Below are positions 23,894 through 64,000 of a stretch of DNA of 64,000 nt, one piece after another. The notes under the pieces were generated by a model that was given only the letters and a program-made list of their open reading frames with translations, made no database searches and was not told the origin of the DNA. The stretch lies in assembly GCA_944388995.1 (NCBI GenBank), contig CALXKN010000008.1, positions 17,160 through 81,159 of the forward strand, in the 5' to 3' direction. Both the position numbers and the translations under genes were made by a program. The first letter of the stretch is position 1. Each line of letters begins with the position of its first letter. This stretch comes from an uncultured Spirochaetota bacterium. GTDB taxonomy: Bacteria; Spirochaetota; Spirochaetia; JAFGXN01.

Positions 23894-23980
23894 GGAGAGA
23901 TGTCCGAGTGGTTTAAGGTGCACGCTTGGAAAGCGTGTGTACGGTAACACGTACCGGGGGTTCGAATCCCCCTCTTTCCG
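23894..23980 (+). tRNA. tRNA-Ser (anticodon GGA)
   Basis: Cloverleaf with acceptor GGAGAGA/TCTTTCC, anticodon stem cacgc/gcgtg with loop ttGGAaa, long variable arm (gtacggtaacacgtac), and T-arm ggggGTTCGAATCcccc. Confidence 0.9.
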
Positions 23981-23983
23981 TTT

Positions 23984-24090
23984 CCCTTGGGTAAGACGGC
24001 AGACAAATCGGAGCGGCTCAACCCTGCCAGGTTCGGAAGAAAGCAACAGTCGGCTGTTTCCGGTTGTGCCTGTTTTGTTTTATTCAAGGG
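23984..24090 (+). ncRNA. ffs: Signal recognition particle RNA (small/4.5S-type)
   Basis: Domain-IV motif ccAGGuuCGGAAgaAAGCAaCag (GGAA tetraloop flanked by AGG and AAGCA). Terminal helix CCCTTG…CAAGGG. Position immediately 5' of dnaX, as in Bacillus. Confidence 0.6.
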
Positions 24091-24108
24091 TTTTCTTTGG
24101 GAAAAGCC

Positions 24109-34793: not shown

Positions 34794-35228
34794 TCAATTT
34801 TCCGATATTATTTTTTTGATTTCTTTTATAACGGAATTTAGTTTTTTCTGTTCTTCTTTACTTTTCGGAATCAAGTCGGAGCAGTAGCGGTCTTTAAATA
34901 AATCGGGACGGGAAACATAAAAAATTTCTTTGAGATTTTCACATCCTTTGTTTTTTCTCAAACCGTCAATGATTTTTCCCTCTATGAATTTCATCGTAAT
35001 TTGGAACGATGAATGGGAAACGGCTGCAATCAGTCTGGTTCCGTTTTTATCAAAATATAAAGGATAACTGTTTTCAGCCAAACCGGCGCCAACAATTTCC
35101 TTCCAGTTATGAAAAGGCGATTTTTTTACAATTTTTGATTCTTCCAGTAAAGAAGCGAGTGAAACCGTTTTTATAACTTTTCCGTATTCTTTTAATTTCA
35201 ATTCTTCAAAAAACGGACGACCGTTCAC
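34794..35228 (-). CDS. DUF721-family protein (recF-linked)
   Basis: 144 aa. Conserved position immediately downstream of recF. Confidence 0.6.
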   Translation of the reverse strand: MNGRPFFEELKLKEYGKVIKTVSLASLLEESKIVKKSPFHNWKEIVGAGLAENSYPLYFDKNGTRLIAAVSHSSFQITMKFIEGKIIDGLRKNKGCENLKEIFYVSRPDLFKDRYCSDLIPKSKEEQKKLNSVIKEIKKIISEN

Positions 35229-36291
35229 TGATTTCTCCTCCTTCGACGAATAAAACCGTTGTCTCTTTCTTCATATAATCGCTGTAATTTTCTTCCGGTA
35301 AAAAAGTAAAAAAAATTTGGTCGTAAAAATTCAGTCGTTTTAAAAATCTTTTTCTTTTTTCGCCGTCCACTTCGAGAATTACGTCGTCAAGAAGCAGAAT
35401 CGGTCTGATTCCGGCTTCTTTTAAAAATTCGGTCTGAATCAGCTTCAAAATAAGCGACAGAATGCGTTTTTGTCCTGTCGAAGCGGTTTTTGAAAAGTCT
35501 TTTTTTTCCGAAACAAAAACAAAGTTGTCGCGGTGAGGCCCTTTTGAAGTTGTTAAAAACCGGATATCGTCGTTTCTGGCCCCGCGGATTTCTTTCAGCT
35601 GTTCTTCTTCCGTTTTTCCTTTTAACGAAGAACGGTAAACCAGCTCAATATCTTTTCTTTGGCCTGTGATGTCTTTATAAATTTCCGAAAACATTCCGTT
35701 GATTTTTTTTACCTGTTCTTCCCTGAAACGGAAAACGGAGAATGCCGTTTGAGACAACTGACGGTCGTAAATATCAAGAAGATGGTAGTTTTTTTCTTTC
35801 AGTAAAGTATTCCTTTGGTTTAAAATCAGTTTGTATCTGCGTTTCAAATCGATATATTCGCAGTGATAAAAACAGATAATCTGATCAATGTATTTCCGTC
35901 TCAAATCCGGTTCTCCGGTAATAATGTGAAAATCCTCATGAGAAAACAAGACAACGGGATTAAGACGAATCATCTCCTTTCTGTCTTTTAAAGGATTTCC
36001 GTTCAGTAAAATCTGACGGTTTTTTTCTTCTTTGAAGCGGATTTCGTTGTCTTCGTCTTCTTCAATATTGAATTTTCCGGTTAAAGAACAGCTGTTGGTT
36101 CCGTATTTTTTGAAAATTTGTTCGCTTTTCCGTTTAAAAGAGGAACCGTAAGAGAGAATATACAATGATTCGAGAATGTTTGTTTTTCCCTGTCCGTTAT
36201 TCCCGACAAGAAAAATTTCTCTGGACGGAAAGCGGACGGTTCCGTTCCGGATGTTGCGGAAATTATAAAATGTAACCGATCGGAAACTCAT
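35206..36291 (-). CDS. recF: DNA replication and repair protein RecF
   Basis: Walker A GNNGQGKTN and an ABC-type signature in the C-terminus. Confidence 0.9.
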   Translation of the reverse strand: MSFRSVTFYNFRNIRNGTVRFPSREIFLVGNNGQGKTNILESLYILSYGSSFKRKSEQIFKKYGTNSCSLTGKFNIEEDEDNEIRFKEEKNRQILLNGNPLKDRKEMIRLNPVVLFSHEDFHIITGEPDLRRKYIDQIICFYHCEYIDLKRRYKLILNQRNTLLKEKNYHLLDIYDRQLSQTAFSVFRFREEQVKKINGMFSEIYKDITGQRKDIELVYRSSLKGKTEEEQLKEIRGARNDDIRFLTTSKGPHRDNFVFVSEKKDFSKTASTGQKRILSLILKLIQTEFLKEAGIRPILLLDDVILEVDGEKRKRFLKRLNFYDQIFFTFLPEENYSDYMKKETTVLFVEGGEISERSSVF

Positions 36292-37400
36292 TGAGATGCT
36301 GTCATCGGCATAACGATGTGCAGAAATTTCTCCTGAGGCACGCTGTAAACCGTCACGGCTTTTTCCGGATGAGAAAAACGGATTTCGATGTTTTCGGAAT
36401 CAATGATTTTTAAAGGATCAAGAAGAAACATATAATTCAGTGAAATCGTAACGTTACCGCCGCCGGTATAAACGCACGGAATTTTTCCGAACGCCTTTCC
36501 GAACGTGTTTTCTTTATCGGTTTCGACCGACATTTCATTGTCCGTAATCCGCAAGTTGATTCTGTTGGTCTTATTCTCAATCATAACGGAAATTCTGTTG
36601 ATAACGCTGATCAGCTCGTTTTTATTCACAACGATTGATTTGTCGTCGTCTTTGGGAATGATTCTTTCGTAGTCGGGATAGGAATTATTGATGATAAACG
36701 AATACAGATAAGTGCTGCCGAATTTAAAGACGATTTTTTTATCGCCGATCATAATTTCAAAATCACCATCGTTGCCGGTCAGTCTTTTGAAAAGGGTCAG
36801 CGCTTTTTTCGGAATGATGATGTCTTTAAAGTCGGGAACTTCCGTTTCGGAAGAATCAATAATCGACATCTGTTTCATATCGGTGGAAACCATTCTCAGC
36901 GAAGAGTTTTTTTTGCAGAAGAGAACGCCGGTCAGATAAATTCTGTTTTCGTCGTTGGAAACGGAAAACAGAGTGTGATTAATCATTTTCAGAAATTCTT
37001 TTTGTGAAAATGAAAAAGAAACGACATTCTCATCCATACCGATTTCGGGAAAGGTATCGGAAACAGTCATTTTCAGAGTATAAAAAAGACTGTCGTTGTT
37101 TTTTAAAGATACATTGAAATCCGTATGAACCGATTCAAAAAGAAGTTCTTCATCGGGACAGCTTCTCAGCACTGTTAAAAACTTATCGCAGTAAACGACG
37201 GCCGATCCTTCTTCCAGAACATCGACCTTCAGCGAAGTTTCATAACTGAAATTGGAGTCGGTTGCTTTGATAATCAGTATATTGTCGGCAGCCTGAAGAT
37301 AAACGCTCGACATGAAAGAGGCAAAATTCCTCGAAGAAGCAATTTCGTAAGCGATACCGATTTCTTTTAAAAGAGCTTCTTTTTGACAGGTGAATTTCAT
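36288..37400 (-). CDS. dnaN: DNA polymerase III beta sliding clamp
   Basis: 370 aa. Position between dnaA and recF. Confidence 0.9.
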   Translation of the reverse strand: MKFTCQKEALLKEIGIAYEIASSRNFASFMSSVYLQAADNILIIKATDSNFSYETSLKVDVLEEGSAVVYCDKFLTVLRSCPDEELLFESVHTDFNVSLKNNDSLFYTLKMTVSDTFPEIGMDENVVSFSFSQKEFLKMINHTLFSVSNDENRIYLTGVLFCKKNSSLRMVSTDMKQMSIIDSSETEVPDFKDIIIPKKALTLFKRLTGNDGDFEIMIGDKKIVFKFGSTYLYSFIINNSYPDYERIIPKDDDKSIVVNKNELISVINRISVMIENKTNRINLRITDNEMSVETDKENTFGKAFGKIPCVYTGGGNVTISLNYMFLLDPLKIIDSENIEIRFSHPEKAVTVYSVPQEKFLHIVMPMTASQ

Positions 37401-37646
37401 AAAATTTCTCCTTATAAACAGATAACGATTAATATATTAATATATATTAATTCATTATCTTTATTACACTGTTGATTTGTTGATAATCCTTTTAAATCCT
37501 TTTAACATATAAAATAAGCTGTATAACAGTCTGTCAGTTAAAAGTGTTTTCATGTATGTAAATTGTCAGTTTCTCCTTTTTCTTTTAAAAAGCATATTCA
37601 TATCATATCAAAAAAAACAGAGTTTGCACAGTTTTTATATAAGTTA
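37401..37646. other. Candidate oriC: AT-rich dnaA-dnaN intergenic region with degenerate DnaA boxes
   Basis: 246 bp at about 25% GC in a ~50% GC genome. DnaA-box-like TGTTGATAA (37478-37486) and TTATCAACA (37645-37653). The dnaA-gyrB gap is only 94 bp. Confidence 0.45.
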
Positions 37647-39029
37647 TCAACAGTTTTTCAGACTGTTTTGAATTTCATTGATGTCGGATTTTAAAATGGA
37701 GTCAAACTGAATGCGGTTCGAAATTTTATTTTTTGAATTAATGACTGTTGAGTGATCCTGTCCGAAATACTCTCCGATTTCGGTTGTGGTCAGTTCCGTC
37801 ATTTGAGTTGCGATGTAAACGGCGGCTTGTCTGTGTATGATAATATTTTTTTTTCTGCTTTTTGATTTTATATCGGCGGTCGGAATATTGTAAAAGTCGG
37901 CAACTTTTTTGACAATCAAATCCATGGAAATTTTTGTATTGTTCTGAACTTTGGACATATTTTTATTCTCTTTGATATACTCTTTTGCATCTTCCAAAGT
38001 TCCCGTATCCGAATTAAAATCGATAAAGAAGAGAAAGGATTTTAAAATTCCTTCCAAATCACGGACGTTTCCGAAAATATTTTCCGAAAGATAAAAGTAG
38101 ACCTCCTCTTCCAGTTTTAAATTTTTATGATTGAAGATATTCTCTTTTTTCAGCTGTTCGGTTTTCTGCTTTAAAATTTTGAATTTAACGTCTGCCGTCG
38201 GTTCGGAAATATCAACCGTAATTCCGCTTTTAATCCGCGAAGCCAGTCTGTCGGTAAAATTCGGAAGTTCCGAAATCGGTCTGTCGCAGGTAAAACAAAT
38301 CTGTTTTCCGTTATCTTTCAGTTTATTGAAAAGAATAAAAAGTTCATGCTGAAGACCGTCTTTGCCTTTAAAAAGATGAATGTCGTCAATTAAAAAAGCG
38401 TCGGCATTTTCGAATAAAGAAAAACTTGTGTTGTTTTTTTTATCCATTTTGGATTTTACATTGTCGTAAAGGGCGTCAATTAAATCCTGGGAACTGATAC
38501 AGATGACATTCATTTCCGGATTTTCTTTGAGAATACGGTGGGCAATGGCCTGCATTAAATGGGTTTTTCCCATTCCGACCTGACCTAAAATCAAAAGCGG
38601 GTTACAGGCTTCCGATCCGATGTGTGACGCTGCCAGCAAAGCGATTTTTTTTGCGTGGCTGTTGTTCTGTCCTTCGATAAAAGTTTCGAATGTGTACAGC
38701 GGATTCAATTTACAGAATCTGTTTTCCTTGTTTTGTTTTTCCGGTGTTTCCGACGGGGATTCTTTTTTTGACGGATTCGCTACCGCAACCGGTTCTTCGC
38801 TGATGACGTAGTTTAAGGAAATTTCGTCGTCAAAACTGATGTTCAGATAGTTTTCGATATCGGACTGATAATTTTTTTTGATTTTTGATTCGATGAAAGA
38901 AGGACAGGTGATTGTCAGTGTTTTTCCGTTCAGAGAAAACGAAACATAGTCGAAAAAAGGAGTAAAATTTTTCTTTTTAATCTTTTTCAGATAATCAACC
39001 AAGTCTTCTTTCAACTCATCGTTATTCAT
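37647..39029 (-). CDS. dnaA: Chromosomal replication initiator DnaA
   Basis: AAA+ Walker A GQVGMGKTHL and a C-terminal DnaA-box-binding HTH. Confidence 0.95.
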   Translation of the reverse strand: MNNDELKEDLVDYLKKIKKKNFTPFFDYVSFSLNGKTLTITCPSFIESKIKKNYQSDIENYLNISFDDEISLNYVISEEPVAVANPSKKESPSETPEKQNKENRFCKLNPLYTFETFIEGQNNSHAKKIALLAASHIGSEACNPLLILGQVGMGKTHLMQAIAHRILKENPEMNVICISSQDLIDALYDNVKSKMDKKNNTSFSLFENADAFLIDDIHLFKGKDGLQHELFILFNKLKDNGKQICFTCDRPISELPNFTDRLASRIKSGITVDISEPTADVKFKILKQKTEQLKKENIFNHKNLKLEEEVYFYLSENIFGNVRDLEGILKSFLFFIDFNSDTGTLEDAKEYIKENKNMSKVQNNTKISMDLIVKKVADFYNIPTADIKSKSRKKNIIIHRQAAVYIATQMTELTTTEIGEYFGQDHSTVINSKNKISNRIQFDSILKSDINEIQNSLKNC

Positions 39030-39123: not shown

Positions 39124-41058
39124 ATGCAGAAAGATTATTCGGCAAGTAATATTCAGATTTTAAAAGGTTTGGAAGCGGTCAGAAAAAGGCCTGGTATGTA
39201 CATCGGTACGACAGGCGAAGAGGGGCTTCATCATCTTGTTTATGAGATTGTCGATAACAGTATTGACGAGGCTTTAGCCGGTTACTGCGATCAAGTTGAT
39301 GTTTTCATCGAACAAGGAAATATTATAAGAGTTGAAGATAACGGACGCGGAATTCCGACAGATATTCATCCCGAAGAGGGAGTTAGCGCTCTGGAGGTGG
39401 TTTTAACTAAACTTCATGCCGGAGGAAAATTTGATAAGAATTCGTATAAAGTTTCCGGAGGTTTGCACGGCGTCGGTGTTTCTGTTGTCAACGCTCTTTC
39501 GGAATGGCTGGAAGTAACCGTTTACAGAAACGGAAAGATTTTTTATCAGCGTTATAAAAGAGGAATTCCGGAAAAGGCGGTTGCCGTCCTGGGAGAAACG
39601 GAAAGAACGGGAACGGTTGTCAGATTCAAACCGGACGGGGAAATTTTTAAGGATACGCAGATTTTCAAATTCGACATTCTTTCATCGCGTCTGCGTGAAC
39701 TTTCGTTTTTGAATAAAGGAATCAAAATCAACATTACCGATTTCAGAACTCCCGTTCCGAAAGAAAACAAATTTCTGTTTGAAGGCGGGGTAAAATCGTT
39801 TGTGTCGTTTTTAAACGAGAACAAAAAACCGCTTCAGTCGGAACCGATTTATTTTGAATCCGAAAAAGAGACCGAAAAAGGCGTTGTAAAAATTGAAGTG
39901 GCGATGGAGTACAGCGAGAGCTACAACGAGCTGATTTTGTCTTTTGTCAACAATATCAATACGCGCGAAGGCGGAACCCATCTCAGCGGGTTTAAAACGG
40001 CTTTGACAAGAGTTTTTAACGAAAAGTTAAAAACATCCAAAGTCGGTAAGCGTTCGAAGCTGACCGAACCTTTGAGCGGTGAAGATACCCGCTTCGGTTT
40101 GACGGCCGTCGTCTCGGCAAAAGTTCCCGACCCTCAGTTTGAAGGGCAGACAAAAGCCAAACTGGGAAATACCGAAATCAGAAAAATTACGGAAACAATC
40201 GTTTACGATAATCTGCTGCTGTATTTTGAGCAGAATCCCGATACGGTCGAAGTGATACTTTCAAAAGCGGTGGAATCTTCCATGGCGCGGATGGCCGCTC
40301 AGCGCGCGCGCGCGAATGTGCTTCGGAAAAACAGTCTGGAAAGCGGATCCCTTCCCGGAAAATTGGCCGACTGTTCGGAAAAAGATCCGTCGCTTTGTGA
40401 GATTTACATCGTTGAGGGAGATTCAGCAGGAGGAAGCGCCAAAGGAGGGCGTGATAGCAAACATCAGGCCATTCTTCCTCTTTGGGGAAAAATGCTGAAT
40501 GTCGAAAAAGCCAGAATCGAGCAGGTGGTAGACAACGATAAACTGAAGCCGGTGATTCAGGCTTTGGGAACAAACGTCGGAAAGCACTTTAATTTGGAAA
40601 AGTTACGGTATGACAAAGTCATCATTATGGCCGATGCCGACGTTGACGGTTCCCATATCCGTACACTGCTGCTGGCGTTTTTTTTCCGCTATATGACGCA
40701 GTTAATCGAGACCGGGCATGTTTATCTGGCAATGCCGCCGCTTTATAAAATCGAATATAAAAAAAAGCACCATTACGCATACGACGATAATGAAAAAGAC
40801 CGGATTCTGAACGAGATCGGCGTTTCGGAAGAAGAGAATTCTGTAAAAATTCAACGGTACAAAGGTCTCGGAGAGATGAATCCGGAACAACTTTGGGATA
40901 CAACGATGAATCCGGAAACAAGGCAAATGATGAAAGTGACAATGGAAGATGCCGTTGAAGCCGACAGAATTTTTACCGTTTTAATGGGAAGCGAAGTCGA
41001 GCCCAGGAAAAAATTCATTGAAGAAAACGCGTTGTCGGTCACTAATCTGGATATTTAG
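39124..41058 (+). CDS. gyrB: DNA gyrase subunit B
   Basis: GHKL ATPase motifs, Toprim EGDSAGG, and C-terminal signature. Extended -10 TGTATAAT at 39107-39114. Confidence 0.95.
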   Translation: MQKDYSASNIQILKGLEAVRKRPGMYIGTTGEEGLHHLVYEIVDNSIDEALAGYCDQVDVFIEQGNIIRVEDNGRGIPTDIHPEEGVSALEVVLTKLHAGGKFDKNSYKVSGGLHGVGVSVVNALSEWLEVTVYRNGKIFYQRYKRGIPEKAVAVLGETERTGTVVRFKPDGEIFKDTQIFKFDILSSRLRELSFLNKGIKINITDFRTPVPKENKFLFEGGVKSFVSFLNENKKPLQSEPIYFESEKETEKGVVKIEVAMEYSESYNELILSFVNNINTREGGTHLSGFKTALTRVFNEKLKTSKVGKRSKLTEPLSGEDTRFGLTAVVSAKVPDPQFEGQTKAKLGNTEIRKITETIVYDNLLLYFEQNPDTVEVILSKAVESSMARMAAQRARANVLRKNSLESGSLPGKLADCSEKDPSLCEIYIVEGDSAGGSAKGGRDSKHQAILPLWGKMLNVEKARIEQVVDNDKLKPVIQALGTNVGKHFNLEKLRYDKVIIMADADVDGSHIRTLLLAFFFRYMTQLIETGHVYLAMPPLYKIEYKKKHHYAYDDNEKDRILNEIGVSEEENSVKIQRYKGLGEMNPEQLWDTTMNPETRQMMKVTMEDAVEADRIFTVLMGSEVEPRKKFIEENALSVTNLDI

Positions 41059-41067: not shown

Positions 41068-43518
41068 ATGGAAGAAACGCAGCCGGGAAATATCATTCCC
41101 GTATCCATAGAAGATGAAGTCAAACAGTCTTATCTGAATTATGCCATGTCGGTTATCGTCAGCCGCGCGTTGCCGGACGTCCGCGACGGACTGAAACCGG
41201 TTCACCGCAGAATCTTATACGCGATGAATGAACTGGGACTGGCGTCAAATAAAGAAACCAAAAAATGCGCCCGCATTGTCGGTGAAGTTTTGGGTAAGTA
41301 CCATCCGCACGGCGATCAGTCGGTTTACGACGCGTTGGTCCGTATGGCGCAATGGTTTTCGCTGAAGTATCCTCTGATTTACGGCCAGGGCAATTTCGGA
41401 AACTTGGACGGCGATTCGGCCGCCGCCATGCGGTATACCGAAGCCAAAATGGAAAAGTACGCTGAATTGATGATGACAGACATCAATAAAGATACGGTTG
41501 ACTGGATGCCGAATTATGATGAATCGACGCAGGAACCGACCGTTCTTCCTTCAGCTTTTCCGAATTTGCTTGTCAACGGATCAAACGGAATTGCTGTCGG
41601 TATGGCGACGAATATGGCTCCGCATAATATCAACGAAGTCTGCGCTGCTGTTTCCGCCTATATCCGGAATCCCGATATTACCGTTGAAGAATTGATGCAG
41701 TATATAAAAGGCCCCGATTTTCCGACCGGCGGTCTTATTTACGGTACAGAAGGAATTAAAAAAGCGTACAGAACGGGTCGCGGAAAAGTTTTGATTCGGT
41801 CAAAGTGTTCGATTGAGACAATGAAATCCGGAAGGATGTGCATTGTTGTTACCGAAATTCCTTACATGGTCAACAAAAAGTCGTTGCTGGAACGGATTGC
41901 CGATTTGGTGAAAGACAAAAAAATCGAAGATATTTCCGCTCTGCGCGATGAATCTTCCGACAGGGTTGGCGTCCGGATCGTTATTGAGTTGAAAAAAGAC
42001 GCCAATGTCAAATTGGCGCTCAATAAACTTTATCTGCTTTCCGATCTCCAGAAAAGTTTCAGTATTATCAATTTGGCTTTGGTGAAAGGCCGTCCGGAAA
42101 CATTAAATTTAAAACAGCTGATTTTTCATTATGTTGAACACCGGAAAGAAGTGGTTACCCGCAGAACGGTTTTCGATTTGAATAAAGCCAAAGCCCGCTG
42201 TCATATTCTGGAAGGGTTAAAAATTGCGCTTGCCAATATCGATGAAATCATCGCCCTTATTAAAGCGTCAAAAACGGTTGATGAGGCAAGAAAGCGCTTG
42301 ATTGAACGTTTTGCCTTTTCCGAAATTCAAGCCAACGCCATCCTCGAAATGAGACTTCAGAAACTGACCAACCTGGAAACGGAAAAAATCCTGAACGAGT
42401 TGGCGGAAATCCTGAAAATGATTGCGTATTACGAAGACTTGCTGACACATGAAGATAAACTGATGGGGGTTGTACGGTCGGAAATCGAGCAAGTTTCCGA
42501 AGCAAATCAGTCAGACCGGCAAACCGAAATTCTGCTGCAGGAAGCGGAAGAAATCGACGCCGAAGACATGATTGCCGAAGAAAACGTGGTTGTTCTGATT
42601 TCAAACAAAGGTTTTATCAAACGGCAGCCCGTTTCATCATACCGGATTCAAAACCGCGGCGGCGCCGGTTCTTCTTCGACAAAATTTCATGTTGACGATT
42701 TTCTTGAACATCTTTTTATTGCCTCAACTCATGAGTACATCGTCTTTCTGACAAACGAAGGACGGGCTTATTATCTGAAAGTTCACGAAATTCCCGAAAG
42801 CAGCAAAGCGGCTAAAGGAACGCATATCAAACAGCTGCTTTCCATTACCGCAAACGAAGAGATTTCCGCTGTAGTAGCTTTAAAGGAATTTAATGAAACT
42901 TCGTTTTTATTTATGGCAACCGGATGCGGAAATGTTAAGCGTCTGGCTACATCAGAGCTGGAAAACGCCAAAACGCGCGGAAAAATCGTAATCCGTCTGC
43001 AGCAGGGCGACCGCCTTGTCAGCGTTATTCCGACAGACGGAAAACGGGAAATGTTTCTCGTTACAAGAAGGGGGCTTGCCCTCCATTTTAAAGAGGAAGA
43101 CGTCCGCGTTATGGGAAGAACCGCCTCCGGCGTGCGCGGAATCAGATTAACCAAAGGTGATGAAGTCGTTGCCGTTCTGTCTTTTAAGGAAAACGAACAG
43201 CTTTTTCTGATTTCCGAATTTGGATTTGCAAAGAGAACTAATCTTGAAAACAGCACTTCGCACTCGCGCGGATCGAAGGGAATCATTTACTATAAAGCCG
43301 GAGAAAAGACAGGCGAACTGGTCGGCGCTCTATGCGTTTCAGAAAAAGACGAATTGGTCTGCATTACCTCTCAAGGAATGACATTAAAATTGAAAGTTGA
43401 TCAAATCCCCGTATTGGGAAGATCTGCTTCAGGCGTGCGTGCGGTTCGCGTAAAAGAACCTGATTGTCTCGTCGGAGTGGCGCGCGTTGTTAACGAAGAT
43501 GCTCCGGATGAAAAATAA
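41068..43518 (+). CDS. gyrA: DNA gyrase subunit A
   Basis: Active-site Tyr region (AAMRYTEA) and C-terminal beta-pinwheel repeats. Confidence 0.95.
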
Positions 43519-43542
43519 TCCGCAGAACGACATCAGCACCCC

Positions 43543-43582
43543 GAAGCCGAATGGCTTCGGGGTGCTTGTTTTATTATAAAGA
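43543..43582 (+). terminator. Rho-independent terminator after gyrA
   Basis: Hairpin gcaccccgaagcc-gaat-ggcttcggggtgc followed by ttgtttt. Confidence 0.8.
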
Positions 43583-43590
43583 CAGTACCG

Positions 43591-43614
43591 TCAATGTTCC
43601 ACGTGGAACATTGA
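43591..43614. promoter_or_regulatory. parS-like centromere site 1 (perfect 24-bp palindrome)
   Basis: tcaaTGTTCCACGTGGAACAttga. The core TGTTCCACGTGGAACA differs from consensus parS TGTTTCACGTGAAACA at one symmetric position. Confidence 0.6.
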
Positions 43615-43641
43615 GAGCTTCTTCACGGCTTTATCGATTTT

Positions 43642-43665
43642 TGAATGTTCCACGTGGAACATTGA
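43642..43665. promoter_or_regulatory. parS-like centromere site 2
   Basis: Second copy of aaTGTTCCACGTGGAACAtt, 51 bp from site 1, about 1.7 kb upstream of parAB. Confidence 0.6.
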
Positions 43666-43696: not shown

Positions 43697-44992
43697 ATGA
43701 AACGGTGTGTTTTTCTATTTTTAACGGTTTTTACGGCGTTCGGTTCGTTTGCTGAACAAAATGGAATTCGGATTGAAATTGACGGATCCGGGGAAAAGAC
43801 CGTTGCTGTTAAAGAATCTGAAGTTGCGGGAACCTCTGCTTTTGTTTTTTCTTTTAAAAAACAAGTCGGGTTATTTGCCGATAAAGTTACCGTTGAAGAT
43901 GCAGTGAAGGGGTTTAAATTTTATTCCGAGATTCGGGAAAAGGCAAATTTATACCGCAAAGAAGAAGAAAAAATTCGCAGCGATATTCTTGAAAAAGAAA
44001 AACATTTCAAAAAGGAAGCTGATCGCTTATATGATATTTACAACAGAAAACTCGAACCTCTTGTCCGAGCATTGACCGTTTTAGAAAAAAGCCGCTCTTC
44101 CGGCGGAGAAGTCGATGTAAATTCGGTTAAACAAAAGATTATTGAGCTGGAAACGGCACGCGATGAGGAAATTGCCGGCGAGAGAAAAAAATATTTTCCC
44201 GACGGATTGCAAACGAATATTGAAGTGACGATTGAAGAAACGGTTGAGGAAAAAATTATCGAAGAGTTCCGGCTGAACCGTTCTTCGTTTTCGGGGACAC
44301 AGATGTCACTTTCCGATGTAAAGAATTCCGTTTCTCTTCAAAATGCTGTACTTTCTTTTGTTCCGGTGAAAAATCTTAAATTGATTTATGAAGACGAAAA
44401 GACGGAAACATCATCAACAGTTTTAAAAAACGCAGCGCCGGACTTTCAAGCCGTAGGATTGCGTTTAAATTTTCCGAATACAGAAAAAACGTTTCGTTTT
44501 GACTGTGAAGAATTTCTTCGTTTGCTTTCGTCTTTTTTTGATTCACAAAACACGGCGCCGGTCGAAGTTCCGAAAACGGCGGCGGCTCAACAGGTCGGTT
44601 ATGTACTGAAAGCAAGGCGCTGCCTTCCCGAGGAATTTGGTTTAAGAAAAACACGACGCATCAGCAAAGAGTTGTTTGTTCCTGTTTCATTTGAAACCAA
44701 AACAGCGAACATTTCCGTTTCAGCGGCTGAGGTCGGCGGAAAGCGTTTTGTGTTTGTTCTTCCCGAAAAACAGGAAGGGAGTTTGGCTGAACATGTTTGC
44801 CTGATTTTTGAAGAAGCCGAAGTTGTCCGTTTGATACGGCTGATTGAAGAAAAACAAAAGTCTGTCGGTACGGTTTCCGTTGATTGGGATTTTCTTTCGT
44901 TCGATTCTGATTTGAAGACGGAAGTCGAAATAACGGATAACGGAGCGATTTTTCCCGAAGAAAAAATGAAGCAGCTGTTTCGGATAAAGTAA
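43697..44992 (+). CDS. Secreted hypothetical protein (431 aa), charged and coiled-coil rich
   Basis: Signal peptide MKRCVFLFLTVFTAFGSFA. No enzymatic motif. Confidence 0.5.
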   Translation: MKRCVFLFLTVFTAFGSFAEQNGIRIEIDGSGEKTVAVKESEVAGTSAFVFSFKKQVGLFADKVTVEDAVKGFKFYSEIREKANLYRKEEEKIRSDILEKEKHFKKEADRLYDIYNRKLEPLVRALTVLEKSRSSGGEVDVNSVKQKIIELETARDEEIAGERKKYFPDGLQTNIEVTIEETVEEKIIEEFRLNRSSFSGTQMSLSDVKNSVSLQNAVLSFVPVKNLKLIYEDEKTETSSTVLKNAAPDFQAVGLRLNFPNTEKTFRFDCEEFLRLLSSFFDSQNTAPVEVPKTAAAQQVGYVLKARRCLPEEFGLRKTRRISKELFVPVSFETKTANISVSAAEVGGKRFVFVLPEKQEGSLAEHVCLIFEEAEVVRLIRLIEEKQKSVGTVSVDWDFLSFDSDLKTEVEITDNGAIFPEEKMKQLFRIK

Positions 44993-45038: not shown

Positions 45039-45257
45039 TTAAACCGATTCGACGCCTTCCAGTTCAGGAATATTGTCTTTTAAGTATTTTTCGATACCGT
45101 TTTTCAGAGTCATTTGAGCCATCGGACAGCCGTGACAGCTGCCTTTCAGTTTTACATAAGCGATGTTTCCTTCCATTTTAACAAATTCTACATCGCCGCC
45201 GTCGGCTTGAAGGGAAGGGCGGACATGCTCGATATATTGTTTGACTTGTTCTTCCAT
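45039..45257 (-). CDS. NifU-like (Nfu) Fe-S cluster scaffold domain protein
   Basis: 72 aa with the CxxC motif GSCHGCP. Confidence 0.75.
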   Translation of the reverse strand: MEEQVKQYIEHVRPSLQADGGDVEFVKMEGNIAYVKLKGSCHGCPMAQMTLKNGIEKYLKDNIPELEGVESV

Positions 45258-45369: not shown

Positions 45370-46131
45370 ATGAAAACAAAAATTACGGCATTTGTCAATC
45401 AAAAGGGCGGCGTCGGAAAAACGACGACAACAGTAAATCTCGGTGCGTATTTAGCCGACGCGGGGAAAAAAGTTCTTTTAATCGATTTTGATCCACAAGG
45501 AAATCTTTCTTCAAATGTCGGTATTGCCGACGTTGAGAAGGGTATTTACGAATTGCTGGCAGGGCAGGCCGATGCAAATGAATGTGTTTATGAAACGCCT
45601 GTTGACAATCTTTTTGTTTGTCCGACCGATATCAATTTGGCGGGAGGAGCTGTCGAATTGATTTCGGTTGATGATCGGGAATTTGTTTTAAAAGAAGCGA
45701 TGGATGAATGGCGCGGCGTTTACGATTATATTTTTATTGACTGTCCGCCCGCATTGGGAGTACTGACTATTAACGCGTTGACGGCAGCCGATGAGGTGAT
45801 TGTTCCGCTTCAATGTGAATATTTTGCGTTGGAAGGTTTGTCACAGTTATTGGATACGATTGAAATGGTGCGGAATACCACTAACCCGAAATTAACATTT
45901 CCTCGTATACTGTTTACAATGTACGATTCAAGAACCCTTCTTTCCCGCGACGTTGTGGATAATTTGAATCAAAACTATCCGGATCGGCTTTTTAAAACCA
46001 TCATTCCTCGGAATGTCAAGTTGGCAGAAGCGCCGTCTCATGGCGTTCCGATTAATTTATACGACAGTTTATGTCTTGGAGCAAAGAGTTACGAAAATTT
46101 GGCAAAGGAGTATATGAACGATGGCAAATGA
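45370..46131 (+). CDS. parA: Chromosome partitioning ATPase ParA/Soj
   Basis: Deviant Walker A KGGVGKTT. Start set at MKTKITAFVNQKGGVGKTT. Confidence 0.9.
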   Translation: MKTKITAFVNQKGGVGKTTTTVNLGAYLADAGKKVLLIDFDPQGNLSSNVGIADVEKGIYELLAGQADANECVYETPVDNLFVCPTDINLAGGAVELISVDDREFVLKEAMDEWRGVYDYIFIDCPPALGVLTINALTAADEVIVPLQCEYFALEGLSQLLDTIEMVRNTTNPKLTFPRILFTMYDSRTLLSRDVVDNLNQNYPDRLFKTIIPRNVKLAEAPSHGVPINLYDSLCLGAKSYENLAKEYMNDGK

Positions 46132-47029
46132 AAATCGTCCTGCAAGAATGAAACGATCGGGATTAGGAAAAGGGATCGAAAATCTGAAACCGAAGGCAGC
46201 GGCTCCTTCCGTAAAAAAGTGGGAAGAAGAGGCGGCCCAAAACGGCGGTATTCGCGAAATTGCGCTCGATGATATTTTTGCCTATACCGATCAGCCGAGA
46301 AAATATTTTGATGAAGAGTCTTTAAACGAACTGGCCGATTCGATTCGGCAAGTCGGCGTTCTGCAGCCGATTTTGGTTATCAGTCGCGAGTCGCGGTATA
46401 TGATTGTTTCCGGAGAACGGCGTTACCGCGCCGCGGTCAAAGCCGGCTTGAAAACCATTCCGGCAGTGGAAATGTCGTTGACTGACGAAAAAGCGGATGA
46501 AATTGCGGTTATTGAAAATATTCAGCGTGAAGATTTAACTCCACTGGAAGAAGCGCGCGCTTATCAGGCGTTAATGCGCCGTTACGGTTATACGCAGGAG
46601 CAGGTTGCCGAAAAAGTCGGAAAAAAGCGTTCGACAATCACCAATGCCGTCCGTTTACTGAAATTACCTGAAGACATTTTAACCGGATTGGAAGAAAATA
46701 AAATTACAGCGGGACATGCACGGAGTTTGGCCGGGTTAAAAAAAGAATCGGAAATGCGGAAGTTTTATCAGATGATTATCTCAAAAGGTTTAAGCGTCCG
46801 CGATATTGAAAAACTTCTGGCAAAAGACGAAAAAAAGGCGGAACCGACAGCGGCCGCCGGAAAACCGTCCAAATCGGAGGATATTCTCGCCGTTGAATCG
46901 CAGTTGATGGAACGGCTGGGAACTCACGTTCTTATCAACGGAACGGAAAAACGGGGAAAAATTGTCATTGATTATTATTCGCTCGATGATTTAAATCGAT
47001 TGATCGAACTGTTGGGAGGCGGTTTTTAA
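46121..47029 (+). CDS. parB: Chromosome partitioning protein ParB/Spo0J
   Basis: ParB box (GERRYRAA) and HTH (QEQVAEKVGKKRSTITNAVRLLKLP). Overlaps parA. Confidence 0.9.
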   Translation: MANENRPARMKRSGLGKGIENLKPKAAAPSVKKWEEEAAQNGGIREIALDDIFAYTDQPRKYFDEESLNELADSIRQVGVLQPILVISRESRYMIVSGERRYRAAVKAGLKTIPAVEMSLTDEKADEIAVIENIQREDLTPLEEARAYQALMRRYGYTQEQVAEKVGKKRSTITNAVRLLKLPEDILTGLEENKITAGHARSLAGLKKESEMRKFYQMIISKGLSVRDIEKLLAKDEKKAEPTAAAGKPSKSEDILAVESQLMERLGTHVLINGTEKRGKIVIDYYSLDDLNRLIELLGGGF

Positions 47030-55218: not shown

Positions 55219-55254
55219 GCCGCCATAGTAAAAGAAAGCCGCCGTCCTGTCAAC

Positions 55255-55421
55255 CTTTTCGTTTTTTGGGCGCGCGCCCCTGCGGGGCGCCGGGCTTTCC
55301 GCTGCAATTCGCAGCCTCCCTGCGCCTTCACCGCGGCAAAGCTGCCGCTTTGCCCTGCGCCTTCTCTCCGTCGGCAGCTCATTTCCGCTTCAATCCCTCG
55401 CGCCTTCGGCAAGGTGCTGCG
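55255..55421. repeat. GC-rich 166-bp direct repeat, copy 1
   Basis: Near-identical (1 indel) to 56426-56591. About 70% GC with internal hairpins (ggcaaagc-tgcc-gctttgcc; gggcgcgcgcccc…ggggcgcc). Confidence 0.9.
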
Positions 55422-55515
55422 GAAATCGGCATTTTATTGTTTTAGTGTAAAAATGGGAACTTCCGAAAACAGTCAACCGTTTTTCGGAAAAATAACTGCC
55501 CTAAACGTATTTTTG

Positions 55516-56304: not shown

Positions 56305-56425
56305 AGCGGAGGCGCGAAACAACTGAGTCCGGTATGAAAGTAGAAGAAATGGGAGCGAAAACTCTTTCAATCGCCACTGATTCTGCCAGCATCTTTACAT
56401 TTGGCTCCGCCCCCCCTCGCTGAAT

Positions 56426-56591
56426 CTTTTCGTTTTTTGGGCGCGCGCCCCTGCGGGGCGCCGGGCTTTCCGCTGCAATTCGCAGCCTCCCGCGCCTTCA
56501 CCGCGGCAAAGCTGCCGCTTTGCCCTGCGCCTTCTCTCCGTCGGCAGCTCATTTCCGCTTCAATCCCTCGCGCCTTCGGCAAGGTGCTGCG
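56426..56591. repeat. GC-rich 166-bp direct repeat, copy 2
   Basis: See copy 1. Preceded by a C7 tract (56410-56416). Confidence 0.9.
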
Positions 56592-56655
56592 AAAGAGGCG
56601 TCTGAAAACTATAAATATGAGAACAATCTCATTTAAACCTCATCCATTTTTATCT

Positions 56656-59541
56656 TCAGCAGAAATGCGCCATATCGCGCGGATAATACTTGCAGTCGTG
56701 CAGTTCCGTGTCGTCAAGCCCCAGCGCCTTTACCAGGGCAGCAGACGCTATGCACCAGTACCCGCGGTACTGGTTCTTTTTCAAGTCAAATTTTGTTATA
56801 AGCCCATCAGTCTTCGTGTGAATCCACTGTCTTTTAAGATACCGTTTTAACCGCTCAACAGCCGCCGCTTTATTCTCTTTTGAAAGCAGTACCACCTCAT
56901 ATACCGCATTGGAATATTTCGGACAGCAGAGCTTTTCCGTGCGTATCTGCCAGGATGAGTCCAGCGTCTGCATAAGGAAATCCAGATAAAAATCCCGCTG
57001 TTCCGATTTTTGTAACAATTTTCGATAGTCATCCAGAAATTCAGTCCTGTTAAAAAGCATAATCAAGTACAGAACAGTTTCCATATCTTCATAATTATCA
57101 TTGCCGTCCTGTGCGTCTATCAAATGACGCAAAATCAGGTCTACTTCGGGAAGCAGCTCATGCATATCTAGCCCTAAGGAATATCCTGTATAAAATTTGT
57201 AAAATGCATAAGTATATATTTGATATTTAAACGCTCTTATGTCCGATTCTGCCTGATGTTCATCAGTCTCAATATTATGATGATGATACGTTTGCAGTAT
57301 TTCTTTCAGCTTTTGGGAATCTTTCTTGAATCTTTCGTCAAAATATTCCTGGGGTTTGACTTTATCCCTCATCATTCTTACCCGGGGCGGAAGTTTTTCC
57401 CGCTCCTCCTCCGTAAGAAATTGCGACAGTTCAACTAAAAAGGGCTCTATAAACTCCGACATGAGTTTCGCTTTATTCCCGGCTGAGTGATCATAAGGTA
57501 TTTCAATTGCCGATGTCCGCCGTTTCTCATCCTTCCACAAGCGTCCTATTTTAATAAATGAACCGCCTTTCTCAAATATGTACAACGATATAATCAGTGT
57601 GCAGTCTTCATACTCACATTCTATATAATCTTGCTCCCCCAAGCAGTAATCTCTGTAGGTAAGATTCCTCAAAGTGGTTATTATCCAGGGTATCCACTCT
57701 TTTTTGATGACAACACTATCCCATGACTGCCATGACCCGGTACCGAAACGGCTGCCGGTTCTGGTGTTGATTCGTAGTTCGCCTTTGGGACTCCAGGGCG
57801 TGGGAAGTTTTTTCCGTTCTTCTTCAGGAAGAAATTGTGACAAGGCCACTAAGAAGGGTTCTATAAATTCCGACATGATTTTCAAGTCGTTGTCCGATTC
57901 TTCAAAATTAAATTCGAAACGGGTATAACGCCACTTTGATGTCAGGGTATAACTCTGCTCATTTTTTGCATGCCAAGGAAAATAAGGTATTTCAAGTGCC
58001 GGCGATATCTTCTTTTCATCCTTCCACATGGGAAATATTTTTATATAGGAATACCCATCCCCTATAGGACAGATACTTAATGTTAATTGGCACGTTCCCC
58101 ATTTATTTATGATGCTTTCAACTCCTGTTTGATAATTATCAACACTAAGATTTCTCAATGTGCTTATTATCCAGGGTATCCGGTTTTTTTGTATAACAAT
58201 ACTTTTCTGCTGCCCGCCGCCGAATGTACCGGTTCTTTTTCCGTTAATCCGTAATTCATCGTTATCTAATTCCTCGAAGCTGTATTCAAAATCGGCATTC
58301 AGAGTTTTTTTGCTTTGATATTTTGTTATCTTCTCTATTTTGGCTACTATCGATTCGTCGTCCGACTTATCGGTTTCGCCTGCATACCAATCTTTGCCTT
58401 CGAGCCATACCCCGAACCAGAAAGGAAGATCCCCCCAAGGTCTTTGACAGAGTTCTTTCTTTTCGTTGACACTCCAGGGGGGCGACAGTTTACCCCTTTC
58501 TTCTTCCGTGAGAAACTGCGACAATGCAACCAGAAACGGCTCTATAAATTCCGACATTAATTTTGTTTCTTTCCGGGATACATAGGGTATTTCAATATTC
58601 CATGAACTCTTATTTTCATTTTTCCAGACAGGATAAATTTTGATATAGGAATAATCAAAGGGTACTACATTTATAATAAAACTTAAATTACAGTAACCGT
58701 ATTCATATACGAGAGTTTGCGGGGTGTTATAATCGTCGATAGTGGCATTTCTTAGTGTGGTAATGATCAAAGGTATCCACGCTTTTTTTATGATAATACT
58801 TTCCCATTGTCCCCTGCCGAATGAATCTGTTCGCTTTGCATTGATTTCCAACTCGTCATCATTTAATTCTTCATTGTCAGCTTTTTCCTCAAAATAAAAT
58901 TCGAAATGAACATTCCCGCCCTTACTGATCAGGTATTCTTTTTCTGCCAGTCCGTATTGTGTTATACCGGTCATTGCTTTGAAAAAATTGAGGGAACCGC
59001 TTTCCTTATCGGCAAAAATGATGTTCTGTTTTTTGTTTTCCCTCCAGGGAGGCGGAAGTTGTGTTCTTTCTTCTTCGGTAAGGAATTGTGCCAATTCAAC
59101 CAAAACAGGTTCGATAAATTCCGCCATTAACCTGCTTTTATCCCAGGGTAGATATGGTATTTCAATAAACGGTGTCGTTTTTTCCTTCGGTTCCTTCCAT
59201 ATGGGCATTATTTGAAGGGTCGCATAATCTTTGGCAGATGGTAAAAACTCCAGATTGACTTGACATTCTTCATATTCGTGAACGATATGTCTGTTCCAAA
59301 TCCCTTCCGGAAAGTTGATGTCGTAATCCTCAAAAGGAAGGGTTCTCAGTGTGGTGATAATCCGGGAAATCCACGCTTTTTTTATGACGATACAGTAATA
59401 CAAAGGCATACGTTCCGCTTCATCCAACAATGGAAAGGTTATTTTTTCGAAAATCCGTATTTCGTCGTTGTCCGATTCCTCAAAATGAAATTCAAAGGTA
59501 TCGGATATTTCGGCATCTCCCCTTCTGCCTGTAATGAACAT
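56656..59541 (-). CDS. Novel 961-aa protein: four tandem ~180-aa repeats plus C-terminal ~210-aa domain (paralogue of the next gene)
   Basis: Repeat hallmarks FEFxFEESDNDELRI…KRTxxFGxGxWxSxxIKKxWIPxIITTLRN…YIKIxPxWKxE…IEIPY…SEFIEPFLVxLSQFLTEEERxKLPPPW occur four times. The C-terminus is about 65% identical to the 59781-60401 product. Confidence 0.7.
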   Translation of the reverse strand: MFITGRRGDAEISDTFEFHFEESDNDEIRIFEKITFPLLDEAERMPLYYCIVIKKAWISRIITTLRTLPFEDYDINFPEGIWNRHIVHEYEECQVNLEFLPSAKDYATLQIMPIWKEPKEKTTPFIEIPYLPWDKSRLMAEFIEPVLVELAQFLTEEERTQLPPPWRENKKQNIIFADKESGSLNFFKAMTGITQYGLAEKEYLISKGGNVHFEFYFEEKADNEELNDDELEINAKRTDSFGRGQWESIIIKKAWIPLIITTLRNATIDDYNTPQTLVYEYGYCNLSFIINVVPFDYSYIKIYPVWKNENKSSWNIEIPYVSRKETKLMSEFIEPFLVALSQFLTEEERGKLSPPWSVNEKKELCQRPWGDLPFWFGVWLEGKDWYAGETDKSDDESIVAKIEKITKYQSKKTLNADFEYSFEELDNDELRINGKRTGTFGGGQQKSIVIQKNRIPWIISTLRNLSVDNYQTGVESIINKWGTCQLTLSICPIGDGYSYIKIFPMWKDEKKISPALEIPYFPWHAKNEQSYTLTSKWRYTRFEFNFEESDNDLKIMSEFIEPFLVALSQFLPEEERKKLPTPWSPKGELRINTRTGSRFGTGSWQSWDSVVIKKEWIPWIITTLRNLTYRDYCLGEQDYIECEYEDCTLIISLYIFEKGGSFIKIGRLWKDEKRRTSAIEIPYDHSAGNKAKLMSEFIEPFLVELSQFLTEEEREKLPPRVRMMRDKVKPQEYFDERFKKDSQKLKEILQTYHHHNIETDEHQAESDIRAFKYQIYTYAFYKFYTGYSLGLDMHELLPEVDLILRHLIDAQDGNDNYEDMETVLYLIMLFNRTEFLDDYRKLLQKSEQRDFYLDFLMQTLDSSWQIRTEKLCCPKYSNAVYEVVLLSKENKAAAVERLKRYLKRQWIHTKTDGLITKFDLKKNQYRGYWCIASAALVKALGLDDTELHDCKYYPRDMAHFC

Positions 59542-59780
59542 TGCATCTACCAGTTTAAGAAAAGCTTTTGTATCAGCGGATTGGGCAGATTCTTCATGTT
59601 GATCGTCTTCTTTATTATATTTTATTCCGACTCCTAAGGAACGCAGCCGTCATATCGAAGGGGTGCAACGGTATGACGGCCAACACTCCGCTTTCACGCG
59701 GTGGTCTTATGCTGTTCATGTCGATACCGGACCGCTTCCGACACAACCGAATGAAGTTTTCCGATTTTCCGAATCAATTT

Positions 59781-60401
59781 CTAACAGAAATGGGTCATAT
59801 CGTAGGGATAGTATTTACAGTCTTTCAGTTCCGTATCGTCAAGTTTGAGGGCTTTTACCAAAGCGGCGGCGGCGATGCACCAATACCCCCGGTACCACCC
59901 TATTTTCAGATCCCGGTTGGTTATAACACCTTCGGTTAATGACATAAACCACTGCCTTTTAAGATACCTCTTTAACCGCTGGACGGCTTCCGCCTTGTTT
60001 TCTTTTGACAGCATTACCACCTCGTATACCGAATTGGTCTCTTTGGGGCAACGAAGTTTTTCCGTACTTATCTGCCATGTGGAGTCTACTATCTGTACAA
60101 GATAATCCAGGTAAAAATCCCGCATTTTCGATTTTTGTAATAACTCCTTATATTCATCCAGAAATTCTGTCCGGTTAAAAAGAATGATTAAGTATATAAT
60201 CATTTCCATATCATCATAACCTCTGTCCCTTTCTCTCGTTGTATCAATCAAATTTCTTATGATAAGGTCTACTTCGGGAAGCAGCTCATTCATACCAAGC
60301 CCCAGGGAATAGCCTGCATAAAATTTACAAGCTGCTTCCATATATATGTGATATTTAAACGACCATACATTATATTTTTCCGGATGGCTTATTCTCTTCA
60401 T
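59781..60401 (-). CDS. Stand-alone 206-aa paralogue of the C-terminal domain of the 961-aa protein
   Basis: YxGYSLGLxMxELLPEVDLIxRxLID…CKYYPxDMxHFC is shared with the 961-aa protein. Confidence 0.7.
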   Translation of the reverse strand: MKRISHPEKYNVWSFKYHIYMEAACKFYAGYSLGLGMNELLPEVDLIIRNLIDTTRERDRGYDDMEMIIYLIILFNRTEFLDEYKELLQKSKMRDFYLDYLVQIVDSTWQISTEKLRCPKETNSVYEVVMLSKENKAEAVQRLKRYLKRQWFMSLTEGVITNRDLKIGWYRGYWCIAAAALVKALKLDDTELKDCKYYPYDMTHFC

Positions 60402-60643
60402 ATTTACTCATCCGTTCAGCAAGATCAGACGCATCCTTATTATATCTTTCCCTAAAATATTCTTCTGTTTTTATGGTGTCTCTCATCTGTTATTCCTTGT
60501 GTATTTTGTAAATTTTTGGTTTATTCTCGTTATACATAACATTGCCATTTTCATCAAGTTGGTAATATGTTACTTTTCCTCCCTTCGGAACGCCTGCGGC
60601 GTGGCTACAATCCTTTGTGCGAGAAGATTTTTATCAATGGTGT

Positions 60644-60700
60644 CCGTACACACCCATTGATGTTGTCAAAGAACTCCTTCTGTACGGAGATAGGGGGAGG
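60644..60700. repeat. 57-bp exact repeat with 7-bp inverted repeat (CCGTACA…TGTACGG), copy 1
   Basis: Identical to 63943-64000. Starts 2 nt after the stop of the 75-aa gene. Confidence 0.9.
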
Positions 60701-60701: not shown

Positions 60702-60929
60702 TTATTCAAAAGTTATTACCATATGCGAACCTGCCGTTTTTTCGGTTACTTTCTGTATAATCTCTTTTTTGTCATCTTCAGTTAATGGCTCGTTTTCTGG
60801 AACAAGCCAATTTTTCATTGAACTTTTATAACAGACAAAACCGCCTACTATCATTTCGCCTGCGATTCTCGCAGTTCTGCCATCGAGTTCTACATCTATG
60901 TATGTGTTTGTTCCGGTTATTTTTGTCAT
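60702..60929 (-). CDS. 75-aa hypothetical protein (partner of DUF600-like gene in duplicated module)
   Basis: MTKITGTNTYIDVELDGRTARIAGEMIVGGFVCYK…. A truncated second copy lies at 62300-62353. Confidence 0.5.
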   Translation of the reverse strand: MTKITGTNTYIDVELDGRTARIAGEMIVGGFVCYKSSMKNWLVPENEPLTEDDKKEIIQKVTEKTAGSHMVITFE

Positions 60930-60938
60930 ATATTAATC

Positions 60939-61271
60939 CTATGCATTATCCCATTCGTCTTGAAGAGCCTGATCCCATTCAAAGGTCATATCAAAGTGAC
61001 CGTTCTTTTCAAGGGTGTAAATAGCTTTGTTCCATTGTGCAAAATGTAACTCTTTTGCACTATTATGAAATTTTATTAAATCAATTTTTGTTTCTCGATT
61101 AAGTGCTAAGTTTAAAGCATTTTTCCATTCTCCATTAATCTGATATTTTGCATTCGTACCAATATATTTATCACTACATTCAATATTCAGTTCAATTTTA
61201 TCCCAAGAGGAATCAATACTATCATTCAATTGCGAACCAATATTTTTATATATATCTTCAATATTTTTCAT
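60939..61271 (-). CDS. DUF600 (YezG/EsaG)-like putative immunity protein, copy D
   Basis: N-terminus IEDIYKNI…SSWDKIEL and C-terminus WNKAIYTLEKNGHFDMTFEWD fit the DUF600 pattern (…EWEKVYLY…, W.NL.L..ER.G.F.IDYDY). AGGAG RBS overlaps the upstream nuclease-fragment stop. Confidence 0.5.
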   Translation of the reverse strand: MKNIEDIYKNIGSQLNDSIDSSWDKIELNIECSDKYIGTNAKYQINGEWKNALNLALNRETKIDLIKFHNSAKELHFAQWNKAIYTLEKNGHFDMTFEWDQALQDEWDNA

Positions 61272-62299: not shown

Positions 62300-62353
62300 T
62301 CAATAATTCCTTTCGGATTGTTTGTATGTGTTTGTTCCGGTTATTTTTGTCAT
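62300..62353 (-). pseudogene. Truncated remnant of 75-aa-family gene (MTKITGTNTY then divergent, stop after 17 codons)
   Basis: The first 10 codons and 5' flank are near-identical to the 60702-60929 gene, then homology breaks. Confidence 0.6.
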
Positions 62354-62362
62354 ATATTAATC

Positions 62363-62686
62363 CTATGCATTATCCCATTCGTCTTGGAGAGTTTGATCCC
62401 ATTCAAATGTCATATCAAAATGACCATTCCTTTCAAGAGAGTAAACAGCTTTGTTCCATTTATGCTCAGGCGACATAGATTCTTGAAGTTCAAAAACGCT
62501 ATCCATTAAAGTATTTACAGTTAATAAAGGAAACTTTAATTCTTTTTTTTCAAACGATGATAAAGTATATTCTGCCTGAAATGAACACATTTTATTTAGA
62601 CTTGATTCTATTTTTACAGTCACTTTTTCCCATTTACCGGAAATATTATCTTGAACCGCCTTGCCTAATTCTTTATATAAATCCAT
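62363..62686 (-). CDS. DUF600 (YezG/EsaG)-like putative immunity protein, copy B
   Basis: C-terminus WNKAVYSLERNGHFDMTFEWDQTLQDEWDNA is near-identical to copy D. Confidence 0.5.
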   Translation of the reverse strand: MDLYKELGKAVQDNISGKWEKVTVKIESSLNKMCSFQAEYTLSSFEKKELKFPLLTVNTLMDSVFELQESMSPEHKWNKAVYSLERNGHFDMTFEWDQTLQDEWDNA

Positions 62687-63942: not shown

Positions 63943-64000
63943 TCCGTACACACCCATTGATGTTGTCAAAGAACTCCTTCTGTACGGAGATAGGGGGAGG
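63943..64000. repeat. 57-bp exact repeat, copy 2 (runs into window end)
   Basis: Identical to 60644-60700. Confidence 0.9.

Follow-up and report, generated by a model that had tools for sequence, protein, structure and literature searches.

Paired palindromes behind gyrA in an uncultured spirochaete: probable parS centromeres of a chromosomal ParABS system

The biology of ParABS systems has been reviewed (PMC7022226), and a spirochaete example has been described (PMC9712426). The parS consensus of Livny et al. (2007), in the form in which it is quoted in PMC7022226, reads TGTTNCACGTGAAACA. One 16-bp sequence, TGTTCCACGTGGAACA, is the wild-type sequence of both parS2 and parS3 of P. aeruginosa, which have been validated experimentally (PMC4368675). 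The same sequence is listed as the parS of P. putida, and the parS listed for M. xanthus is TGTTCCACGTGGAACG (PMC7022226).

Here we describe two palindromes, each with TGTTCCACGTGGAACA as its core, that lie just behind gyrA in a 64-kb stretch of DNA from an uncultured spirochaete; this whole stretch is called the window below. A first-pass annotation of the window had proposed that the palindromes are chromosomal centromere sites for ParB. Their agreement with the consensus, their location, the cognate proteins encoded nearby and their conservation support that proposal, and we put the probability that they serve a ParABS system as its chromosomal centromere (parS) at roughly 0.9.

The cores are identical in all 16 bp to parS2 and parS3 of P. 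aeruginosa and to the parS of P. putida, and like those sites they are origin-proximal, clustered and accompanied by cognate ParA and ParB. Pseudomonas, however, belongs to the Gammaproteobacteria and has four sites near the origin, distributed over several kb, together with weaker distal ones, whereas the window is from the Spirochaetota and has two visible sites placed 51 bp apart at the 3' end of gyrA. The cores have the 16-bp inverted repeat in common with parS of the Bacillus/Caulobacter/Thermus type (TGTTNCACGTGAAACA), as well as the CACGTG center and the TGTT/AACA ends, and the window ParB has the same recognition residues (the equivalents of R173 and G201) and CTPase motifs. The difference from the canonical parS lies in positions 5 and 12 of the cores, which are C and G rather than T and A.

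Among spirochaetes, B. burgdorferi also has its parS in an oriC-proximal par/gyr/dnaA neighborhood, and this site is presumably next to gyrA as well. The construct coordinates given in the Methods of PMC9712426 place it directly beside parB, and after binding to parS the B. burgdorferi ParB spreads and recruits SMC (PMC9712426). B. burgdorferi has a single parS, a ParB without the N-terminal ParA-activating peptide, a parA paired with parZ, and divergent parA and parB genes; the window, in contrast, has two sites, a parA-parB operon and a ParB that keeps LGKGI. The only spirochaete examined in detail is B. burgdorferi, where ParB/parS has a supporting role only and ParZ controls ParA (PMC9712426); the division of labor in spirochaetes can thus depart from that of the textbook ParABS system.

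Two palindromes in the spacer behind gyrA

The genes and sites of the neighborhood are the following.

35206 to 36291, minus strand: recF (Pfam annotation)
36288 to 37400, minus strand: dnaN (Pfam annotation)
37401 to 37646, no strand assigned: probable oriC, predicted from the AT-rich dnaN-dnaA intergenic region, DnaA-box-like motifs of the TTATCAACA type and the GC-skew minimum
37647 to 39029, minus strand: dnaA (Pfam annotation)
39124 to 41058, plus strand: gyrB (Pfam annotation)
41068 to 43518, plus strand: gyrA, with the putative parS sites of this spirochaete group conserved in position at its 3' end
43535 to 43566, plus strand: predicted intrinsic terminator for gyrA (GC-rich stem of 14 bp, then a T-run), 5' of the putative parS sites
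43595 to 43610, no strand assigned: putative parS site 1, 16-bp core TGTTCCACGTGGAACA inside a 24-bp perfect palindrome (43591 to 43614)
43646 to 43661, no strand assigned: putative parS site 2, 16-bp core TGTTCCACGTGGAACA inside a 20-bp palindrome (43644 to 43663)
43697 to 44992, plus strand: 431-aa ORF with no family match, clade-specific, with a signal-peptide-like N-terminus
45039 to 45257, minus strand: small NifU-like gene (Pfam annotation)
45370 to 46131, plus strand: parA, encoding a ParA/Soj-type ATPase
46121 to 47029, plus strand: parB, encoding the protein presumed to bind both sites

The perfect 24-bp palindrome of site 1 reads tcaaTGTTCCACGTGGAACAttga, and the perfect 20-bp palindrome of site 2 reads aaTGTTCCACGTGGAACAtt, with a g/c as the next flanking pair ending its symmetry. 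The cores start at 43595 and 43646, which gives 51 bp from start to start and a gap of 35 bp. When the 64-kb window was searched with TGTTCCACGTGGAACA at up to three mismatches, the two cores were the sole matches; with the pattern TGTTNCACGTGNAACA at up to two mismatches they were again the sole matches, both of them exact. Only 1.3e-5 exact copies of TGTTCCACGTGGAACA are expected by chance per 64 kb from base composition, and perfect 16-bp palindromes of any sequence number just four in the entire window. The palindrome pair is therefore real and far beyond chance, and the coordinates and the uniqueness of the cores bear out the earlier description of two perfect palindromes 51 bp apart downstream of gyrA. 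Half-sites of 7-8 bp from the 16-mer are not enriched in the 64-kb window, and no Rfam family matched the parS region. A dispersed repeat or mobile element was considered and rejected, as the window holds only two copies in a syntenic place and the half-sites are not enriched. Besides the two cores, the only perfect 16-bp palindromes in the window are AAACCGGCGCCGGTTT at 11076-11091, within or close to the ORF at 10637-11974, and ATTAATATATATTAAT at 37436-37451, in the AT-rich dnaN-dnaA spacer (putative oriC).

Both cores differ from the canonical TGTTTCACGTGAAACA by two symmetric mismatches. The first-pass annotation had described this difference correctly as one symmetric position (T to C, A to G); the resulting form is nevertheless no untried departure from the canonical site, being the sequence of the validated parS2 and parS3 of P. 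aeruginosa and of the P. putida parS. Canonical parS sites elsewhere near the origin, which that annotation had named as evidence that would speak against a centromere, are absent from the 64-kb window: searching it with TGTTTCACGTGAAACA at up to three mismatches added just two positions, 7918 and 44683, both poor matches with three mismatches.

The minimum of the cumulative GC skew lies near 36-38 kb, within the recF-dnaN-dnaA/gyrB-gyrA setting. This minimum, together with the AT-rich dnaN-dnaA spacer and its motifs of the TTATCAACA type, indicates that oriC likely lies about 6 kb from the palindromes, and the pair is thus likely to be origin-proximal with respect to a predicted oriC. The measured distances (4.6 kb to the start of dnaA at 39029, 1.7 kb to parA) agree with the approximately 4.5 kb and 1.7 kb given previously for dnaA and parAB. 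The gyrA terminator hairpin at 43535-43566 has a folding energy of -30.2 kcal/mol (z = -8.0).

The 431-aa ORF at 43697-44992 begins with the signal-peptide-like sequence MKRCVFLFLTVFTAFGSFAEQ, and neither Pfam nor NCBIfam contained a family that matched it. In the window, this ORF has no obvious Shine-Dalgarno sequence and a predicted -10 element ends 5 nt before its ATG, so its mRNA could be leaderless.

Several other features of the window were noted. Near 24 kb, a tRNA gene (23894-23980) is followed by a small SRP RNA (23990-24087) and dnaX (24064-25830); the dnaX ORF as mechanically listed overlaps the end of the SRP RNA (24064 versus 24087). Toward the other end, the minus strand carries a 961-aa ORF (56656-60401) with approximately four internal repeat units of about 590 nt, which ends in PoNi_N and PoNi_C domains (PoNe-toxin immunity), and a 206-aa PoNi_C paralogue lies at 59781-60401. 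The region 56656-60401, part of a stretch with a GC content of 0.33-0.41, resembles an array of immunity genes against polymorphic toxins, either fused or in tandem. Three pairs of direct repeats bracket segments of about 1.2-3.3 kb in the low-GC end of the window: 55252-55424 and 56423-56594 (175 nt, 98-99% identity), 60643-60700 and 63943-64000 (58 nt, 100%), and 60899-61036 and 62323-62460 (138 nt, 93%). The segments may be mobile or recombining cassettes. An ORF for a D12-class N6-adenine methyltransferase is found at 62733-63842 on the minus strand.

ParB and ParA encoded near the sites

The genes for ParA and ParB form an operon that begins 1.7 kb downstream of the palindromes with parA, parB following at 2.5 kb. 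The 302-aa ParB has ParB_N, HTH_ParB and ParB_C domains (Pfam) and passed the NCBIfam model parB_part (TIGR00180) with 186.9 bits against a cut-off of 58.45. It matched the structures of ParB/Spo0J proteins solved for Thermus, Myxococcus, Caulobacter, Bacillus and Helicobacter with E values of 1e-45 to 4e-55 (of the order of 1e-49 to 1e-55 for those of T. thermophilus, M. xanthus, C. crescentus and B. subtilis). In these alignments the CTP-binding motif GERRYRA, ENIQREDL and the helix-turn-helix TQEQVAEKVGKKRSTITNAVRLLKLP...ITAGHAR can be recognized. From the conserved Q162 onward, the window protein maps without indels on Q162, G170, K171, R173, N178, G201 and R204 of the Caulobacter ParB. 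According to Jalal et al., R173 and G201 contact parS and are conserved in all ParB orthologues, and are Q and R in Noc (PMC7383237). Residues 14-19 of the window ParB are GLGKGI, a ParA-activating motif of the LG(R/K)GL type that has been defined for the N-terminus (PMC9712426). Judged by these features, the protein bears every hallmark of a parS-specific chromosomal ParB.

Noc of the Firmicutes is a ParB paralogue that likewise acts on a palindromic site of 14-16 bp, and the window ParB shares its K184 type. Positions 179 and 184 (Caulobacter numbering), which are variable among ParBs, are A and K in the window protein. The lysine type at 184 (RLLKLP) is present in every spirochaete ParB aligned, with R173 and G201 still of the ParB type; according to Jalal et al. 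it is almost invariant among Noc proteins and "permissive" for binding to the Noc-binding site, NBS (PMC7383237). The NBS, however, is ATTTCCCGGGAAAT, without the CACGTG center, and Noc has Q173, K179, K184 and R201, whereas the window ParB has R173 and G201. We rejected an NBS on the grounds of the differing site sequence, the presence of R173 and G201, and the score against the Noc model TIGR04285, which at 226.7 falls under the curated cut-off of 315.

ParA contains the deviant Walker A motif KGGVGKT and AAA_31/CbiA domains. Its mechanically called ORF begins at a TTG at 45322; the 253-aa form that begins at the ATG at 45370 fits the relatives.

Sites in relatives and in metagenomes

The gyrA-ORF spacer of the window was compared with that of syntenic relatives (L001, L002 and L063-L072, seven of them distinct), L063-L072 having been picked via their ParB homologues. 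By GyrA the closest genomes are uncultured Spirochaetes/Spirochaetales MAGs, and the identity to the window is 87-98% for GyrA (98% in L002, 87% in L001) and 68-72% for ParB. Each relative has exactly two parS-like sites in approximately 20 kb, both within the gyrA-ORF spacer. In the alignment of this spacer, conservation is confined to the terminator hairpin, both 16-bp cores and the ATG, and the flanks and the sequence between have diverged; an exact 34-nt query comprising site 1 and its flank had no match in the genome contigs, as the flank has diverged even in close relatives. All relatives have, 5' of site 1, a hairpin with a T-tract equivalent to the gyrA terminator. Across the seven distinct relatives the cores show little or no change. 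Site 1 of L063 and L065 is TGTTCTACGTGGAACA, with one mismatch, and is perfect in L064, which encodes the same ParB; site 2 of L066-L068 is TGTTTCACGTGGAACA, a half-canonical T/G hybrid. The extension of the palindromes to 20-24 bp is not conserved, the 24-bp palindrome being broken already in L002 with its GyrA identity of 98%. As judged from the alignment, purifying selection on the 16-bp cores is demonstrated. The 431-aa ORF is present in L001, L002 and L063-L072, where it sits between the parS doublet and nifU-parAB.

The start-to-start spacing of the cores in the gyrA-ORF spacer of the relatives is 51, 51, 41, 42, 42, 36 and 37 bp. Given this variable spacing, the two sites most likely represent independent, redundant loading sites rather than a phased cooperative operator. 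Helical phasing of the paired sites was rejected, since spacings of 36, 37, 41, 42, 51, 58 and 82 bp share no phase.

The last two of these spacings come from more distant Spirochaetia/Spirochaetota MAGs (58 bp in L074, 82 bp in L076). These two and a third, L077, encode ParB proteins 44-45% identical to that of the window and keep the order dnaA/gyrB-gyrA ... nifU-parA-parB. Sites of the canonical TGTTTCACGTGAAACA type occur within about 100 bp after gyrA in all three (two each in L074 and L076, one in L077), and the 431-aa ORF is absent from all three. The presence of sites at the gyrA 3' end in genomes without that ORF indicates that the parS sites predate it. In L074 and L076, dnaX-ybaB-recR follows directly after parB, unlike in the window. 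L075 was left out of this comparison because its contig stops short of the gyrA side, and L073 served as a contrast only, with the non-spirochaete order rnpA-yidC-jag-trmE-gidAB-parAB and canonical parS flanking parAB.

The DNA-contact residues of ParB are identical in the lineages with C/G-type and T/A-type sites. These shared contacts, the T/A form in the related MAGs and the T/G hybrid in L066-L068 suggest drift tolerated at the "N" of the consensus and no new specificity, and the C/G core accordingly looks like tolerated variation rather than a specificity change. A more elaborate history, which we regard as doubtful, is that, in this branch of the Spirochaetota, the centromere was fixed ancestrally at the gyrA 3' end and that the clade of the window then switched all four half-sites together from T/A to C/G with the ParB contacts unchanged, L066-L068 representing a T/G intermediate. 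If such a switch had been selected rather than neutral, it could tune ParB loading or, alternatively, couple ParB occupancy to the clade-specific secreted-protein gene behind the sites; were this true, either cause would make the locus a small natural experiment in the co-evolution of a centromere and its protein.

Metagenomes were scanned for two copies of TGTTCCACGTGGAACA placed 15-45 bp apart, and at least 120 contigs with such a doublet were found, with GC contents from 0.26 to 0.74. Among the matches listed, 51 of 120 stretches carried a ParA or ParB homologue (tblastn with the window proteins), and the distance from doublet to parA was mostly 70-450 bp, with a few up to 1 kb; other listed doublets adjoin gyrA, gyrB or dnaA. 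The scan and these ParA/ParB neighbors suggest that close doublets of TGTTCCACGTGGAACA are a common centromere layout. Four metagenome contigs with GC contents of 0.27-0.35 (L166, L190, L152 and L160) contain arrays of 5-10 exact copies of TGTTCCACGTGGAACA within about 0.3-1.5 kb, far larger than the doublet of the window. In L152, L166 and L190, a gyrA homologue is located 90-590 bp from the nearest copy of the array; in L160 the array is beside a dnaA homologue, with gyrA about 7.7 kb off.

Alternative readings and proposed function

The sites might be bound by ParB and yet be kept mainly for transcription, silencing or tuning the 431-aa secreted-protein gene, parAB or both, with segregation secondary. 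Such a role would overlap with that of a centromere, and effects of ParB on transcription near parS are known in other bacteria (PMC7022226). Site 2 lies just 17-35 nt 5' of the ATG of the ORF in the window and its relatives, so that any intergenic promoter must overlap the sites, and in the window a promoter-like match (TTGACA-18-AATTAT) starts 1 nt past site 2. The match has no conserved counterpart in L064 or L001, however, and neither the spacing between the sites nor that between site 2 and the ATG is conserved; L074, L076 and L077, moreover, have parS at the gyrA 3' end without having the 431-aa ORF. We therefore consider a mainly transcriptional purpose unlikely, and the lack of conservation of TTGACA/AATTAT beside site 2 likewise led us to reject a sigma-70 promoter/operator. 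That another dimeric transcription factor uses the CACGTG-centered palindromes as an operator for the downstream gene, their likeness to parS being coincidental, is very improbable. Two perfect palindromes close to a promoter are what such an operator might look like, but the match to a validated parS extends over all 16 positions, the gene for a parS-specific ParB is close by, and the same type of site is found beside parAB in dozens of unrelated contigs. The sites also remain where the downstream gene has been replaced, and neither phasing nor a promoter is conserved.

It is scarcely credible that the palindromes act as RNA hairpins, whether as extra terminators or as stabilizers, at the gyrA mRNA 3' end. 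They do fold, at -13.6 and -9.7 kcal/mol, and a simple terminator scan flags some of the copies in relatives, but the far stronger canonical terminator (-30.2 kcal/mol with its T-run) stands 5' of them and is kept in the relatives, and in the window no T-run follows either palindrome. An RNA stem would also allow compensatory changes, yet the primary sequence of the core is invariant or nearly so. The scan of the window flags 43535-43566 alone, as the gyrA terminator, and the palindromes were rejected as intrinsic terminators.

The reading of the two palindromes as parS sites is the one we favor, and binding of ParB to the cores and a role in segregation are inferred by analogy with described systems. 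On that analogy, dimers of the window ParB would recognize each 16-bp core through the helix-turn-helix, bind CTP, close into clamps and slide to neighboring DNA, and the 431-aa ORF would be the first gene that the sliding clamps reach. Sliding ParB would build an origin-proximal partition complex, which in turn would stimulate the ATPase of ParA through the N-terminal LGKGI peptide of ParB, allowing sister origins to separate, and would probably load SMC.

The sequence, the proteins and their arrangement all fall within well-described ParABS biology, and the locus raises no new mechanistic question. Its value is mostly one of annotation: in an uncultured lineage of spirochaetes, the pair would mark the chromosomal centromere and hence the region of the origin. 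The putative parS doublet directly after gyrA is a conserved landmark of the group, one that can help to locate oriC and the par loci in fragmented MAGs.
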